DNA of 64,000 nt, taken from the NCBI RefSeq assembly GCF_051903065.1, contig NZ_CP178438.1; one strand, written 5' to 3'. The translations under genes and the position numbers were made by a program. The stretch comes from Escherichia coli. Lineage in GTDB: Bacteria > Pseudomonadota > Gammaproteobacteria > Enterobacterales > Enterobacteriaceae. Under the pieces are notes generated by a model. The model made no database searches. It worked only from the letters and a program-made list of their open reading frames with translations, and had not been told where the DNA came from. Below, one piece after another: positions 3,009 through 8,376 of the stretch. Every line of letters starts with the position of its first letter. Position 1 is the first letter of the stretch.

Positions 3009-4136
3009 ATGCAGTGCGCACTTTACGACGCGGGTCGCTGTCGTTCCTGTCAGTGGATAACGCAGCCGATTCCAGAGCAACTCTCCGCTAAAACCGCCGA
3101 TCTTAAAAATCTGCTCGCCGACTTTCCGGTTGAGGAATGGTGCGCGCCGGTGTCAGGCCCGGAACAAGGGTTTCGTAATAAAGCCAAAATGGTGGTGAGT
3201 GGTAGCGTTGAAAAACCACTGCTCGGTATGCTGCATCGCGACGGCACACCGGAAGACCTTTGTGACTGCCCGCTTTATCCTGCCTCATTTGCGCCCGTTT
3301 TTGCGGCGCTAAAACCGTTTATCGCCCGAGCGGGGTTAACGCCCTACAACGTGGCGCGTAAGCGTGGCGAACTGAAATACATTCTGCTGACTGAAAGCCA
3401 GAGCGATGGCGGCATGATGCTGCGCTTTGTACTGCGTTCTGATACCAAGCTGGCGCAACTGCGTAAGGCGCTGCCGTGGTTACACGAACAACTACCGCAG
3501 CTGAAAGTTATTACCGTCAATATTCAGCCGGTACATATGGCGATTATGGAAGGGGAGACGGAGATCTACCTGACCGAACATCAGGCACTGGCAGAGCGTT
3601 TTAATGACGTACCGCTGTGGATCCGTCCGCAAAGTTTCTTCCAGACTAATCCGGCGGTCGCCAGCCAGCTGTACGCTACCGCGCGCGACTGGGTACGACA
3701 ACTGCCGGTTACACATATGTGGGATCTGTTCTGTGGCGTGGGGGGCTTTGGTTTACACTGCGCGACGCCTGACATGCAGTTAACCGGGATCGAAATTGCG
3801 CCAGAGGCCATTGCCTGTGCAAAGCAGTCAGCCGCTGAACTGGGCTTAACGCGTTTGCAATTTCAGGCGCTGGACTCCACTCAGTTTGCCACCGCTCAGG
3901 GGGAGGTGCCGGAGCTGGTGCTGGTTAACCCGCCGCGCCGCGGCATTGGTAAACCGCTGTGTGATTATCTCTCAACGATGGCACCGCGTTTTATCATCTA
4001 CTCCAGCTGTAACGCCCAAACTATGGCGAAAGATATCCGAGAACTGCCTGGTTATCGCATTGAACGGGTGCAGCTTTTCGATATGTTCCCTCACACCGCG
4101 CATTATGAAGTGTTGACGCTGCTGGTAAAAATTTAA
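3009..4136 (+). CDS. rlmC: 23S rRNA (uracil-C5)-methyltransferase RlmC (RumB)
   Basis: 375-aa ORF with N-terminal Cys cluster ([14 protein letters not shown]) and SAM-methyltransferase motifs ([10 protein letters not shown]). Confidence 0.9.
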
Positions 4137-4190
4137 ATACATCACGGCAGTAAATTTTTCGGCAACAACTATTCACTCAAAATAATAATC

Positions 4191-4226
4191 GTGATCGATC
4201 GATTAATAATAACCGATCGATCACGG
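4191..4226. promoter_or_regulatory. Perfect 12-bp inverted repeat (cgtgatcgatcg / cgatcgatcacg) with 12-bp AT-rich spacer and four GATC sites; candidate operator or rlmC terminator
   Basis: Read directly from the sequence in the rlmC-PTS intergenic region. Confidence 0.4.
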
Positions 4227-4433
4227 TTATATATTGCTCTATTTTTGCAAATCAAATCACAAATAATCAAATAAGATCTTTAATTGAACTGTTTTGATTA
4301 CTACAGTGCACTTACCGAATACATACAGAGGCATTGCTTAGCGAAACACAAAATTTCCTGAGACATTATTAACGTCAGCAGAAGGTTCATGCATTGACAA
4401 CGGAAATGTACGCTTATGGAGGGCGTTCCGACG

Positions 4434-5759
4434 ATGTTTGCCAAATTCATAGATGTTATTCAAACGTTTTTAACTGAACCGGCAATTTTAATTGGTTTGC
4501 TGGTGGGTATTGGTTATGCCCTTGATAAGAAATCGCCAATAAAAATTATTACCGGCATGGTCAGCGCCATGGTGGGATTAATGATGGTGTTATTTGGTGG
4601 TTTCCAGTTTTCCGCAACATTTAAACCGGTAGCAGAAGCCGTAAGTAAAGCCTATGGTGTTCACGGATATTTAATGGATTCCTACGCAATGAAAGCGGCA
4701 ACGCAAATTGCACTGGGGGATAATTTTGGTTATGTCGGGTATGTATTTGTACTGGCGTTTTTTACCAACCTGCTGCTGGTATTATTTGGTCGGTATACTG
4801 GTGCCAAAGGGATATTTTTGACAGGGAATACCGGTGTTTCACATTCTCAGGCGGTATTATGGTTGATTGTCTTTTGGCTGGGTTTTAGCTGGACTACATC
4901 CATTATTATTGCCGGAATATTAACGGGTGTATTCTGGGCGTTCTCCACCACGCTCATTGTTAAGCCCATTGCCAAAGTTACCAAAGATGCCGGTTTTACC
5001 ATTGCTCATAACCAGATGTTGGGATTGTGGTTTTTCTCCAAATTCGCCCATAAATTTGGTGACCCTGAAAAGCACGATGCTGAAAACCTGAAACTTCCCG
5101 GGTGGCTGGCGATTTTTAACCATAACGTAACGGCTATCGCCATTGTGATGACGCTGTTTGTCGGTGGTTTCTTGCTATCAACGGGTATCGATAATGTCCA
5201 GTTAATGGCGAAAGGCAAGCCCTGGTACATCTATATCATCAACCTTGGCTTACAGTTCTCCATGTATATGGTCATTCTGCTGCAGGGTGTGCGCATGATG
5301 GTGGGCGAAATTAACGGTTCGTTTAAAGGCTGGCAAGATCGCTTTATTCCTAACGCTATTCCTGCTGTCGATGTTGCAGCGCTGTTACCTTTTTCACCCA
5401 ATGCCGCAACGTTAGGCTTCGTCTTCTGTACTTTTGGCACCATTTTTTCGATGGGGATATTATTACTGGTTCACAGCCCAATTATGGTATTGCCTGGCTT
5501 TGTACCTCTGTTTTTCTCTGGCGGTCCAATTGGCGTATTAGCAAACCGCATGGGCGGATACCGTTCCGTAATTATCTGTACGTTCTTGCTGGGTATTATT
5601 CAGACCTTCGGTACGGTGTGGGCTATTCCGTTAACCGGGCTTGCTGAAAATGGCGTCGGCTGGACAGGAATATTTGACTGGGCAACCGTATGGCCTGCTA
5701 TTTGTGAAGTTCTGAAATTTATCGCTGCAACATTCCATCTTGGTCCTTACGCGGGTTAA
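4434..5759 (+). CDS. PTS system EIIC component, L-ascorbate (UlaA/SgaT) family
   Basis: Multi-TM ORF with clear similarity to UlaA along its length (e.g. KLPGW, VRMxVGE, PGFxPxFFS motifs); start chosen at MFAKF (ORF track begins 4416). Confidence 0.8.
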   Translation: MFAKFIDVIQTFLTEPAILIGLLVGIGYALDKKSPIKIITGMVSAMVGLMMVLFGGFQFSATFKPVAEAVSKAYGVHGYLMDSYAMKAATQIALGDNFGYVGYVFVLAFFTNLLLVLFGRYTGAKGIFLTGNTGVSHSQAVLWLIVFWLGFSWTTSIIIAGILTGVFWAFSTTLIVKPIAKVTKDAGFTIAHNQMLGLWFFSKFAHKFGDPEKHDAENLKLPGWLAIFNHNVTAIAIVMTLFVGGFLLSTGIDNVQLMAKGKPWYIYIINLGLQFSMYMVILLQGVRMMVGEINGSFKGWQDRFIPNAIPAVDVAALLPFSPNAATLGFVFCTFGTIFSMGILLLVHSPIMVLPGFVPLFFSGGPIGVLANRMGGYRSVIICTFLLGIIQTFGTVWAIPLTGLAENGVGWTGIFDWATVWPAICEVLKFIAATFHLGPYAG

Positions 5760-5780
5760 TTAAATATTAAGGGTTTAAAA

Positions 5781-6101
5781 ATGAAAGATACAATTAATAT
5801 TCTGTTTGTCTGTGGTTACGGTGTAGGCAGTAGCGTTATGTTACAAACGGTCGTTAAAAAAGCGCTGACCAAATATGATTTCAAAGTTGAAATGGAACAT
5901 ACCGCCGCAGGTGAAGTCGGCGGGTTTACCGACTGGGCGGATATTTTTGCTATTTCCAAAAAATTACTCGATGTGGTTAGTCTTGACCCGAAACAAGGGC
6001 AATATTTGATTCCGATAGAGAATATTATGGACGGTGAAACTATTGGTCAGCAAATTTATGAAGTGGTTCAGCAACATTTTCCGCATTTAATTAATCAATA
6101 A
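5781..6101 (+). CDS. PTS system EIIB component (ascorbate/galactitol-type)
   Basis: 106-aa ORF with N-terminal phospho-cysteine loop ILFVCGYGVGSS like UlaB; immediately downstream of the EIIC gene. Confidence 0.8.
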   Translation: MKDTINILFVCGYGVGSSVMLQTVVKKALTKYDFKVEMEHTAAGEVGGFTDWADIFAISKKLLDVVSLDPKQGQYLIPIENIMDGETIGQQIYEVVQQHFPHLINQ

Positions 6102-6112
6102 GGTAGGGCGTA

Positions 6113-7594
6113 ATGAGAGCGATTATTCTACTGTTCGATAGTCTGAATAAACGTTATCTGCCACCTTATGGCGATGCGTTAACCAAAGCGCCTAATTTCC
6201 AACGTCTGGCGGCTCATGCCGCCACCTTTGAAAACAGTTACGTCGGCAGTATGCCGTGTATGCCTGCCCGGCGGGAGTTGCATACCGGGCGATGTAACTT
6301 CCTGCATCGGGAGTGGGGGCCGTTAGAACCGTTTGACGACTCCATGCCGGAGCTGCTTAAAAAGGCGGGGATCTATACCCACCTGATAAGCGATCATTTG
6401 CATTACTGGGAAGATGGCGGCGGGAATTATCATAATCGCTACAGTTCGTGGGAGATTGTGCGCGGACAGGAAGGCGATCACTGGCATGCGAGCGTTGCGC
6501 AACCGCCTATTCCCGAGGTGCTACGGGTGCCGCAAAAGCAGACCGGTGGCGGTGTTTCTGGTCTGTGGCGCCATGACTGGGCAAACCGGGAATATATTCA
6601 GCAGGAAGCGGATTTTCCACAAACCAAAGTGTTTGATGCAGGCTGTACCTTTATCCACAAAAATCACGCGGAAGATAACTGGTTATTGCAGGTCGAAACG
6701 TTTGATCCGCACGAGCCGTTTCACACAACGGAAGAGTATCTTTCCTTGTATGAAGATAACTGGGATGGACCGCATTATGACTGGCCGCGTGGCCGGGTGC
6801 AGGAGAGCGACGAGGCCGTGGAGCACATCCGTTGCCGGTATCGTTCGCTGGTGTCGATGTGCGATCGCAACCTGGGGCGCATTCTCGACCTGATGGATGA
6901 GCACGATCTGTGGCGAGATACCATGCTGATTGTCGGCACTGACCACGGCTTTTTACTCGGTGAGCATGGCTGGTGGGCGAAAAACCAGATGCCTTATTAC
7001 AACGAAGTTGCCAATAATCCGTTGTTTATCTGGGACCCGCGCAGTGGTGTAAAAGGAGAGCGGCGACAGGCACTGGTACAAATGATCGACTGGGCGCCAA
7101 CGTTGTATGACTTTTTTCAACAGCCAGTGCCGCCCGATGTGCAGGGGCAACCGCTGGCGAAAACGGTCAGTCACGATGAACCAGTACGCAGCTCGGCGAT
7201 GTTTGGTGTCTTCAGTGGTCATGTTAACGTAACCGATGGGCGTTTTGTCTATATGCGTGCAGCGCTGCCGGGGCGTGAGGATGATATTGCCAACTACACG
7301 TTGATGTCCTGCAAAATGAACAGCCGCTATCCGGTGGATGAGATGCGGGCTTTATCGCTGGCCCCACCGTTTCGTTTTACCAAAGGGTTACAGGTATTAC
7401 GCATCCCGGCACAGGAAAAATATAAGGGGTTGAATCAGTTTGGTCATTTGCTGTTTGATCTGCAAAACGATCCGCAGCAGCTACATCCGATTCATGATGA
7501 TGTGATTGAGTCCCGGATGATCGCGTTGCTGATTCAGTTGATGAAAGATAATGATGCGCCGCCAGAGCAGTTTCAGCGCCTGGGATTAGCGTAG
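6113..7594 (+). CDS. Cys-type sulfatase-like hydrolase (alkaline phosphatase superfamily), predicted cytoplasmic
   Basis: 493-aa ORF; N-terminal IILLFDSL metal-binding motif and sulfatase signature C-M-P-A-R-R-E-L-H-T-G-R; no signal peptide evident. Confidence 0.75.
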   Translation: MRAIILLFDSLNKRYLPPYGDALTKAPNFQRLAAHAATFENSYVGSMPCMPARRELHTGRCNFLHREWGPLEPFDDSMPELLKKAGIYTHLISDHLHYWEDGGGNYHNRYSSWEIVRGQEGDHWHASVAQPPIPEVLRVPQKQTGGGVSGLWRHDWANREYIQQEADFPQTKVFDAGCTFIHKNHAEDNWLLQVETFDPHEPFHTTEEYLSLYEDNWDGPHYDWPRGRVQESDEAVEHIRCRYRSLVSMCDRNLGRILDLMDEHDLWRDTMLIVGTDHGFLLGEHGWWAKNQMPYYNEVANNPLFIWDPRSGVKGERRQALVQMIDWAPTLYDFFQQPVPPDVQGQPLAKTVSHDEPVRSSAMFGVFSGHVNVTDGRFVYMRAALPGREDDIANYTLMSCKMNSRYPVDEMRALSLAPPFRFTKGLQVLRIPAQEKYKGLNQFGHLLFDLQNDPQQLHPIHDDVIESRMIALLIQLMKDNDAPPEQFQRLGLA

Positions 7595-7603
7595 AGAAGT
7601 GAT

Positions 7604-7637
7604 TTTGCCGGAGTGGGTGTTCGCCCACTCCGGCAAA
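7604..7637. terminator. Bidirectional stem-loop terminator between the sulfatase gene and artJ
   Basis: GC-rich hairpin ttgccggagtggg...cccactccggcaa flanked by T/A runs. Confidence 0.55.
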
Positions 7638-7644
7638 TGAATAA

Positions 7645-8376
7645 TTATTGCGGGAACCACTGATCGCTGATTTTCTGATATGTACCGTCAGCTTTAATTG
7701 CTGCCAGCGCGTTATTCAGTTTTTCCAGCAGAGCTTTGTTATCCGGACGTACAGCGATACCCAGGCCGGTGCCGAAGTATTGCGGATCGGTCACTTTTTC
7801 AGTAGCAACGCCCAGTTGCGGATTGGTTTTCAGCCATTCATTAACCACCGCAGTGTCACCAAATACGCCATCAATACGGCCATTTTTCAGATCGATAAAG
7901 GCATTTTGATAACTGTCATAGGAGACCGTTTTCACTTCCGGGTGCTGATCCTGAATATATTTCTGGTGCGTGGTGCCGTTTTCCATCCCAATACGTTTGC
8001 CTTTCAGATCGGCAAACGTTTTGTAGGTATCTTTTTTGGCAATCACGACGGCTGAGTTTTCATAGTAGGGCGTGGTAAACGATACCTGTTTGCTACGCTC
8101 CGGGGTGATATCCATACCGGAGATTACGGCGTCATATTTTCTGAATTTCAGTGACGGGATCAGGCTGTCGAACGCGTGATTAGTAAAAGTACATTCTGCC
8201 TGCATCTGTTTGCATAACGCTTTTGCCAGGTCGATATCAAAGCCGACGATCTGGTTATTGGCATCCATCGACTCGAACGGCGGATAGGTCGCTGATACGC
8301 CAAAATTGATTTTCTCTGCGGCAGAAGCGCCGAACGCACAGGATGCCAGTAATGCGGCAAGAACTAACTTTTTCAT
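7645..8376 (-). CDS. artJ: Arginine ABC transporter periplasmic binding protein ArtJ
   Basis: 243 aa from MKKLVLAALL (signal peptide); periplasmic binding protein sequence; paralog of artI at 10058-10789. Confidence 0.9.
   Translation of the reverse strand: MKKLVLAALLASCAFGASAAEKINFGVSATYPPFESMDANNQIVGFDIDLAKALCKQMQAECTFTNHAFDSLIPSLKFRKYDAVISGMDITPERSKQVSFTTPYYENSAVVIAKKDTYKTFADLKGKRIGMENGTTHQKYIQDQHPEVKTVSYDSYQNAFIDLKNGRIDGVFGDTAVVNEWLKTNPQLGVATEKVTDPQYFGTGLGIAVRPDNKALLEKLNNALAAIKADGTYQKISDQWFPQ

Follow-up and report, generated by a model that had tools for sequence, protein, structure and literature searches.

Three intact open reading frames (ORFs) running in the same direction lie between rlmC and artJ in a stretch of Escherichia coli DNA of 64,000 nucleotides (assembly GCF_051903065.1, contig NZ_CP178438.1; the whole stretch is hereafter called the window), and encode the EIIC and EIIB components (enzymes IIC and IIB) of a phosphotransferase system (PTS) and a sulfatase-type enzyme of 493 residues. 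This cassette is proposed, with a probability of roughly one half, to be an accessory front end to the resident Ula pathway, devoted to the uptake of L-ascorbate-2-sulfate and its desulfation to L-ascorbate-6-phosphate. The same trio is embedded in ula operons at six loci of other bacteria, which points to ascorbate sulfate as the substrate. Gene content, family assignments, ula synteny in other phyla, purifying selection, and the maturase and exporter neighbourhoods of relatives are observed directly. Every part falls into a known family, and generic annotations of the genes already exist, RefSeq/PGAP giving the identical three coding sequences in 566 genomes. The genes and their surroundings in the window are as follows:

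3009–4136, + strand: rlmC, the left flank of the cassette
from 4137, no strand assigned: rlmC–EIIC intergenic region, 279 bp, AT-rich, regulatory
4416–5759, + strand: EIIC, 447 residues, PTS L-ascorbate (UlaA/SgaT) family
5781–6101, + strand: EIIB, 106 residues, PF02302 type, UlaB-like
6113–7594, + strand: sulfatase, 493 residues, a cytoplasmic Cys-type (formylglycine) hydrolase of the S1 sulfatase fold
ending at 7645, − strand: artJ, the right flank, convergent with the sulfatase gene

According to the proposed mechanism, EIIC and EIIB would import an ascorbate derivative with an extra anionic group, most likely L-ascorbate-2-sulfate, a stable animal metabolite of vitamin C that is routine in the metabolomics of mammalian plasma and urine. 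Both components would phosphorylate the substrate at C6, with the phosphate delivered by EI, HPr, and an EIIA acting in trans, most likely UlaC. Cys49 of the sulfatase would be converted into formylglycine, and the cytoplasmic enzyme would remove the sulfate to give L-ascorbate-6-phosphate and free sulfate. The former would enter the reactions of UlaG, UlaD, UlaE, and UlaF, whose chromosomal genes lie away from the cassette. UlaC, UlaR, and the catabolic enzymes should be available in trans, because the ulaG–ulaC DNA is nearly universal in the species (5425 of 5426 E. coli genomes). The cassette could also be induced by L-ascorbate-6-phosphate if its promoter block is a UlaR operator, since this compound is the known effector of UlaR (PMC5934670). 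In this scheme we infer what the substrate is, that UlaC and UlaR take part in trans, how the enzyme is matured in E. coli, and that phosphorylation precedes desulfation.

Linkage to Ascorbate Catabolism

Among 20 non-enteric loci in which the sulfatase is linked to a PTS, six hold the trio at most 10 kb from ula catabolic genes. The most complete string is found in Neobacillus niacini, where a single strand carries EIIA, EIIC, EIIB, the sulfatase, UlaG, a second EIIB (EIIB'), UlaD, UlaE, and UlaF in this order, with scores above the cut-offs for UlaG (653 bits, cut-off 306), UlaD (327, cut-off 250), UlaE (441, cut-off 200), and UlaF/AraD (362, cut-off 257). Bacillus sp. SD088 carries the trio divergently from a UlaR-UlaC-UlaG-UlaD-UlaE-UlaF-PtsI string, and a Clostridium locus combines a UlaR-like regulator, UlaG (663 bits), EIIA, EIIC, EIIB, the sulfatase, UlaF, and UlaE. 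In a neighbour-joining tree, the ula-linked members fall into both branches of the PTS-linked sulfatase clade, and no recurrent catabolic pathway other than ula was found beside the module among the examined loci. A survey of UlaG proteins from 2011 had already recorded a sulfatase "inserted" in the ula regulon of Sebaldella, with no remark on what this sulfatase does (PMC3219644).

EIIC and EIIB Components

EIIC matches the NCBIfam model NF009550 (PRK12997 group) with 964 bits, against a cut-off of 583, over residues 1–446 of its 447, and scores 321 bits with the UlaA equivalog NF006919, below the cut-off of 380. Its identity is 38–40% to UlaA and 57–69% to the sulfatase-linked EIICs of Firmicutes, and PF03611 (EIIC-GAT) is recorded for its orthologues. 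These scores place EIIC in a distinct orthologous group within the L-ascorbate family, and not as UlaA itself.

For a comparison of the substrate pocket, 20 sulfatase-linked EIIC sequences from two phyla were set against the ascorbate contacts of E. coli UlaA, taken from PMC6048161. The clade retains G58, Y87, H194, G286, R288, D314, and F362 of UlaA, and its substitutions (S59G, H135N, I136A/T/S, Q139A/S, and Q195N) are all to smaller residues. The window EIIC itself carries S59G, H135N, I136T, Q139S, and Q195N, and retains Y87, H194, D314, F362, and R288. Moreover, the clade gains a conserved Lys or Arg in hairpin 1, three residues past Y87, and a His at UlaA position 140. The pocket looks like an ascorbate-type site that is widened on one side and provided with new potential anion ligands, and these changes would suit an ascorbate core that bears an additional anionic group.

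EIIB (...ILFVCGYGVGSS...) contains the loop VCGYGVGSS with the phospho-acceptor Cys11, and PF02302 is recorded for its orthologues. With 43.6 bits against the UlaB equivalog (cut-off 138), it is UlaB-like rather than UlaB itself. The cognate EIIA of the Firmicute systems is a UlaC-like PF00359 protein, with the ascorbate IIA as its best NCBIfam match and an identity of 29–43%, and two proteins (P0044 and P0082) are fusions that carry this EIIA at the C-terminal end of the sulfatase.

The Cytoplasmic Sulfatase and Its Relatives

The 493-residue protein matches PF00884 (E 1.5e-28) together with SGSH_C. Its N-terminus (MRAIILLFDSLNKRYLPPYG / MRAIILLFDSLN) bears no signal-like extension, and the first β-strand and the metal ligand Asp9 begin at once. 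The sulfatase signature CMPARRELHTGR occupies residues 49–60 (C49-M-P51-A-R53-R-E-L-H-T58-G59-R60); C49, P51, R53, T58, G59, and R60 do not vary among 75 homologues, and the residues aligned to canonical catalytic positions are D9, C49, R53, H200, D277-H278, and K290. The scores with NCBIfam subfamily models lie well under the cut-offs for arylsulfatase (PRK13759, 112.5 bits, cut-off 481), choline-sulfatase (TIGR03417, 105.7, cut-off 433), and PehA (NF045661, 106.8, cut-off 900). Judged by these models, the protein is outside all curated subfamilies and represents a separate, uncurated one.

Searches against solved structures gave N-acetylglucosamine (GlcNAc)-6-O-sulfatases as the top relatives (E 1e-22) when the single sequence was used; with a family profile, the cytosolic enzymes SpAS1 and SpAS2 came first, followed by GlcNAc-6-sulfatases, choline sulfatases, and phosphonate monoester hydrolases (PMHs). 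An AlphaFold model (pLDDT 72.8, pTM 0.81) was used for fold assignment only, given a pLDDT below 50 in the active-site loops, and the top 50 Foldseek matches listed from the PDB are all S1 sulfatases or PMH-like enzymes, with TM-scores of about 0.55–0.64 and 13–20% identity.

Homologues of the sulfatase were found in at least 594 species-level genomes. Identity amounts to 87% in Salmonella, 62–68% in Clostridia, Lachnospiraceae, Bacillus, and Olsenella, and 53–59% in Paenibacillus, Actinobacteria, Chloroflexi, Planctomycetes, Rhizobia, and Lokiarchaeota, and 111 positions are at least 97% invariant across 75 homologues. Maturases adjoin 23 of 85 loci: a stand-alone formylglycine-generating enzyme (FGE; PF03781, 269 bits) at 13 and an anaerobic sulfatase-maturating enzyme (anSME; TIGR03942, above cut-off) at 10, with an anSME also present at two further metagenomic loci, L098 and L099. 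These maturase neighbours, together with the invariant CxPxR motif, support the formation of formylglycine at Cys49.

Two groups can be distinguished by context. In the PTS-linked group (at least 60% identity), EIIC and EIIB are encoded immediately upstream of the sulfatase, usually along with a UlaC-like EIIA and a regulator of the DeoR or SorC type. The order EIIC-EIIB-sulfatase is kept across Enterobacteria and Firmicutes, and the PTS-linked sulfatases form a single clade in the neighbour-joining tree. In the non-PTS group (53–59% identity; loci L030–L094), the sulfatase stands behind sugar-type (CUT1) or Opp-type ABC importers, or in a PadR-sulfatase-MFS-GH3 arrangement. Only three positions discriminate between the two groups of sulfatases (E67/S, an inserted G145, and S368/G).

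Several PTS-sulfatase modules are also adjoined by anion transporters of the TauE type or by paired short transporters of the CHR family (loci L098, 6354–7154; L099, 12595–14586; L018, 11657–12816; and also L017 and L021), and in two of these cases an anSME is encoded in the same gene string. These transporters are candidate exporters of the released sulfate, and fit with its release in the cytoplasm.

Other pairings of importers with different sulfatase subfamilies occur in gut Firmicutes. They include a Man-type PTS with a 454-residue sulfatase and a GntR regulator (L098, 219–4169), an EIIC-GAT and EIIB with a 444-residue sulfatase and a SorC regulator (L100, 2967–6041), and a 439-residue sulfatase beside an ABC importer (L008, 12195–13514), so that PTS-coupled desulfation may be a wider theme. 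On a contig resembling Clostridium porci, binary-toxin genes (Binary_toxB and an ADP-ribosyltransferase toxin; L004, 18202–21500) lie about 7 kb from a PTS-sulfatase module.

Distribution and Selection

A survey of 5426 complete E. coli genomes found the cassette in 566 (about 10%), always on the chromosome and in a single copy. All but one of the copies (565 of 566) are intact and full length, the exception being interrupted by IS1 (NZ_CP083585.1, 3109996–3113372). Two alleles exist in E. coli, both at the rlmC–artJ site: one is at least 99% identical to the window in 410 genomes (O157:H7, O55:H7, O145, and others), and the other is about 91% identical in 155 genomes. Between both alleles, dN/dS is 0.009 for EIIC, 0.03 for EIIB, and 0.049 for the sulfatase, and dS is 0.42–0.82 for the cassette genes versus 0.19–0.25 for the flanking rlmC and artJ. 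The low dN/dS together with the high dS indicates that the cassette genes are old and under strong purifying selection. The alleles stand about 9% apart in DNA (window 4416–7594 versus L095 2501–5680), with about twice the divergence of their flanks by dS. This pattern suggests either that the polymorphism is ancient or that recombination has imported an allele at a fixed site.

The reduced three-gene form is common to E. coli, Salmonella, Enterobacter, and Yokenella. In Salmonella, it occupies the same site (STM0884 region), and the EIIC is STM0884 of strain LT2, annotated as "ulaA". This gene contains an intragenic sigma-54 site according to a chromatin immunoprecipitation study (PMC3844500), and is named among the genes altered in virulence-regulator mutants in another report (PMC2639726). 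In Yokenella, the cassette is close to rlmC and artJ but separated from them by additional genes, while in Enterobacter it is found at a different chromosomal locus, adjoining an arylsulfotransferase gene. The Enterobacter cassette is divergent from this gene (PF05935; L012, 4466–5881, − strand), and a fragment of an arylsulfotransferase-type gene lies downstream of the Yokenella cassette (L014, 9542–9763, − strand). Through this neighbour, the cassette may have a further connection with aryl- or enol-sulfate chemistry.

In K-12-type genomes, artJ follows directly after rlmC, with a spacer of 198 bp or 28 bp. The empty sites hold a shared terminator, and the K-12 empty site additionally contains an element resembling a repetitive extragenic palindrome (REP). 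No insertion scars or direct repeats were found at the empty site, and thus there is no sign of an origin from a mobile element. The last amino-acid codon of rlmC is not the same in cassette-bearing genomes (...VKI*; window 4128–4136) and in empty-site genomes (...VKQ*; L002, 3129–3137), so that the presence/absence polymorphism has its left edge within the final part of rlmC. The GC content is 39–45% in the promoter, EIIC, and EIIB, 50–54% in the sulfatase gene, and about 52–55% in the flanks.

An earlier note on this DNA had described a cassette of three co-directional genes with no counterpart in the K-12 gene order, composed of a UlaA/SgaT-like EIIC, a small EIIB with a CGYGVGSS phospho-Cys loop, and a 493-residue enzyme with a sulfatase signature and no signal peptide, and lacking genes for an EIIA, a regulator, and a formylglycine maturase. 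This description holds in all its parts: the profile searches that the note had suggested matched the three proteins to the EIIC, EIIB, and sulfatase families as given above, and none of the missing genes was found in the cassette or its flanks, either among the window ORFs or in the annotation. The mapping across E. coli genomes, also suggested there, has shown the cassette to be accessory. The start coordinate of the note, 4137, is the first position of the 279-bp regulatory region, and no gene starts at it.

The Regulatory Region

The intergenic region upstream of the EIIC gene and the junction downstream of the sulfatase gene contain three further features:

4185–4230, no strand assigned: inverted repeat with 21-nt arms (ATAATCGTGATCGATCGATTA / TAACCGATCGATCACGGTTAT), 50 bp past the rlmC stop codon, with four GATC (Dam) sites
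4241–4306, + strand: conserved promoter/operator block of 66 bp (TTTTTGCAAATCAAATCACAAATAATCA...TGTTTTGATTACTACAG), with GATT-type repeats at 10-bp spacing
7607–7634, no strand assigned: GC-rich hairpin (GCCGGAGTGGG-TGTTCG-CCCACTCCGGC) between the convergent stop codons of the sulfatase gene and artJ

The regulatory region of the cassette is more conserved than synonymous sites. Within it, the 66-bp block hardly varies between the two E. coli alleles and Salmonella, and it is also kept in Yokenella and in Enterobacter, including the relocated site of the latter. This block resembles elements of the K-12 ulaG–ulaA intergenic region, with 13 of 15 and 12 of 15 matching positions, and the Yokenella block reads ATGTGATTGGATTTGATC versus ATGTGATTGGTTTTGATT in ula. 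Altogether, 26 pairs of 15-mers reach at least 12 of 15 matches to the ulaG–ulaA region, compared with at most 4.5 per 354 bp for 16 control intergenic regions, and none of 300 Markov shuffles reached this number. The block is put forward as a plausible candidate operator for a UlaR-like repressor of the DeoR family.

Both E. coli alleles and Salmonella carry the inverted repeat with hardly any change, whereas the Enterobacter and Yokenella cassettes lack it, so that it was rejected as a conserved operator. It is probably a terminator or insulator of rlmC, or else a (methylation-sensitive) protein-binding site. The downstream hairpin is probably a bidirectional terminator, although it has no T-run and was not flagged by a terminator scan. 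A search of the region for RNA leaders or riboswitches gave no Rfam match except one sub-threshold small RNA hit, and a scan for sigma-70 promoters gave sites no more numerous than in shuffles.

Comparison with Known Systems

The closest characterized relative is the Ula system of E. coli itself (UlaABC, UlaG, UlaDEF, and UlaR). Both share the PTS family and the core pocket residues Y87, H194, D314, F362, and R288; the EIIA of the relatives is UlaC-like, the trio accompanies UlaG/D/E/F in six loci, and the promoters have similar elements. However, the cassette EIIC has only 38–40% identity to UlaA, its pocket is altered, and both EIIC and EIIB stay below the equivalog cut-offs. Moreover, the canonical ula regulon has no sulfatase gene, and the enteric cassette has neither EIIA nor regulator.

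Among solved structures, SpAS1 and SpAS2 (4upi and 4upl) and the PMHs (2vqr, 2w8s, and 4upk) are the best relatives by profile (E 6e-29 to 4e-22). Like the cassette enzyme, they are cytosolic and hold the CxPxR motif, the DHG metal site, and the PH(x)P His. Unlike it, they hold FDQL instead of FDSL and K-x-H instead of D-H-L-H, and they lack the NFLHREWGP and SDHLHYWEDGG motifs, at about 18% identity and a TM-score of about 0.6. The mammalian arylsulfatases A and B are formylglycine-dependent S1 sulfatases reported to hydrolyse L-ascorbate-2-sulfate, which makes this chemistry feasible for the fold. However, they are lysosomal enzymes of the secreted pathway whose substrate is the compound without a phosphate, and their homology to the cassette enzyme is only distant (e.g., 1fsu, E 8e-11).

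A streptococcal Man-family PTS offers another comparison, whose demonstrated import is reportedly of non-sulfated disaccharides and whose operon is said to have no dedicated cytoplasmic sulfatase. This PTS takes up unsaturated glycosaminoglycan disaccharides (PMC6837340) and is similar in the uptake of a host-derived acidic carbohydrate, but differs in PTS family and substrate class. An accessory island of Streptococcus pneumoniae, described in PMC3283741, is similar in combining a PTS with an intracellular putative sulfatase, a sulfatase-modifying factor, and a TauE-like protein. However, it differs in its Lac/cellobiose PTS, its ROK regulator, and the lack of an ula link. The same source reports that this island contributes to host fitness, that its substrate is unknown, and that no sulfatase activity was detected with 4-methylumbelliferyl sulfate (PMC3283741).

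Weighing the Alternatives

Several observations weigh against ascorbate-2-sulfate as the substrate. No ula genes lie nearby in 14 of the 20 non-enteric PTS-linked loci or in any of the enteric ones, and the non-PTS relatives are found next to ABC importers and GH3 glycosidases, with no PTS or ula gene in their vicinity. No phosphate-binding basic residues specific to the PTS-linked sulfatase clade have been gained, and the enzyme probably recognises the sulfated moiety regardless of a distal phosphate. The moiety common to the family is probably not exclusive to ascorbate, and the substrates of the family may extend beyond ascorbate sulfate. Within the active site, the second N-terminal metal ligand, usually Asp or Gln, is Ser10, and the sulfate-binding Lys of the K-x-H motif aligns with D94 (H95 if shifted by one), where D94-H95-L96-H97 lies within the invariant SDHLHYWEDGG motif. 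The loops of the active site are unreliable in the AlphaFold model, and homology is about equidistant to arylsulfatases, choline sulfatases, and PMHs. The similarity to UlaR operators is statistical only, in AT-rich DNA, and a window-wide scan with the consensus TGTGATTNNNTTTGATTA (at most three mismatches) gave five matches versus 2.3 expected, which is not significant. The literature search returned no experiment or publication linking a member of this family to ascorbate-2-sulfate.

The main rival explanation, which is judged to be rather unlikely, keeps PTS import and cytoplasmic desulfation, and assigns them to another substrate, such as a sulfated hexose, hexuronate, lactone, or glycoside of mucin, glycosaminoglycan, plant, or algal origin. 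Once desulfated, the phosphorylated product would be passed to some other central pathway, and the ula synteny of some Firmicutes would reflect a shared regulator or EIIA, or operon mosaicism. Besides the prevalence of PTS-linked loci without ula genes, this explanation is favoured by the non-PTS relatives, which accompany sugar ABC importers, GH3 enzymes, and LacI, ROK, or PadR regulators while keeping a near-identical active site, and by the single-sequence search, where the nearest solved relatives are GlcNAc-6-O-sulfatases. It also agrees with the pairing of PTSs with different sulfatase subfamilies in gut Firmicutes and in S. pneumoniae (PMC3283741). However, EIIC is an L-ascorbate-family protein that retains the core pocket residues of UlaA, and the only catabolic genes found adjacent are those of ula, six times and in both branches of the clade, with a single-operon arrangement among them. 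In addition, 6-O-sulfated hexoses are excluded, because phosphorylation by the PTS would occupy the primary hydroxyl. The substrate, called undefined in the earlier note, can be narrowed by the six ula-embedded loci, which point to an ascorbate sulfate. The broader claim of that note, that a PTS importer with an intracellular sulfatase implies a sulfated, sugar-like substrate, has gained support from the sulfatase-EIIA fusions, the conserved gene order, and the maturase and TauE/CHR neighbours. Universal conservation together with a characterised substrate, which the note had named as evidence that would speak against it, is not what was found, with the cassette in about 10% of E. coli genomes and no substrate characterised.

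Two further explanations are considered improbable. The 493-residue enzyme might be a formylglycine-dependent phosphoester hydrolase of the PMH type, with activity on phosphonate monoesters, phosphodiesters, or phosphomonoesters, acting on a phosphorylated substituent as in, for example, ascorbate-2-phosphate or a phosphodiester-linked sugar. PMH enzymes likewise use formylglycine, the PehA model scores nearly as well as the arylsulfatase model (106.8 versus 112.5 bits), the best solved relatives by family profile are SpAS1/SpAS2 and the PMH group, and the canonical sulfate-binding Lys is not conserved. On the other hand, SpAS1 and SpAS2 were themselves deposited as sulfatases, a His is kept at the K-x-H position, and the module is accompanied by TauE/CHR exporters of the sulfite/sulfate/chromate type and by anSME and FGE, which are typical partners of sulfatases, with no phosphonate or phosphate-scavenging genes nearby. 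Furthermore, a phosphomonoesterase acting on the product of a PTS would be futile, and ascorbate-2-phosphate is not known to be a natural metabolite. The preference for a sulfatase over a PMH-type hydrolase therefore rests on context and motif, and not on clade membership; the alternative raised by the earlier note, a grouping with phosphatases or PMHs, has been only partly cleared.

Slightly less probable still is that the E. coli cassette is a silent or decaying remnant, unexpressed or inactive, that persists in some lineages. The EIIA, the DeoR/SorC regulator, and the maturase of the Firmicute versions are missing from it, about 90% of E. coli genomes have lost the cassette, and one copy is interrupted by IS1. 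Nevertheless, a dN/dS of 0.009–0.049 at a dS of 0.42–0.82, the 565 intact, full-length copies, the retention of the same three-gene form in Salmonella, Enterobacter, and Yokenella, and a regulatory region conserved beyond synonymous sites are difficult to reconcile with decay. Compatible trans factors, UlaC and UlaR, are universal in E. coli, and this organism can mature Cys-type sulfatases.

Significance

The literature search found no functional study of the cassette or of the sulfatase subfamily, nor of bacterial use of ascorbate-2-sulfate or of a PTS combined with a cytoplasmic sulfatase in this role. It is tentatively suggested that the cassette comprises the first PTS for a sulfated substrate and the first sulfatase that naturally acts on a sugar-acid phosphate, together forming an unrecognised branch of vitamin C salvage through UlaG/D/E/F. 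If true, this salvage branch would exist in enterohaemorrhagic E. coli (EHEC) O157:H7, Salmonella, Enterobacter, and many gut Clostridia, and would add a sulfated-substrate branch to both the PTS and vitamin C catabolism. It would also provide a function and a purchasable test substrate for an accessory operon of O157:H7, O55:H7, O145, Shigella, Salmonella (STM0884–0886), and gut Firmicutes.

The analysis also defines a large and highly conserved subfamily of cytoplasmic sulfatases, which extends from bacteria to Lokiarchaeota and has no solved structure or studied member. The E. coli cassette supplies a cytoplasmic Cys-type sulfatase native to this organism, through which the activity that forms formylglycine there can be sought, and, being variable among lineages, it is a candidate marker of niche adaptation, for example in cattle-associated EHEC.

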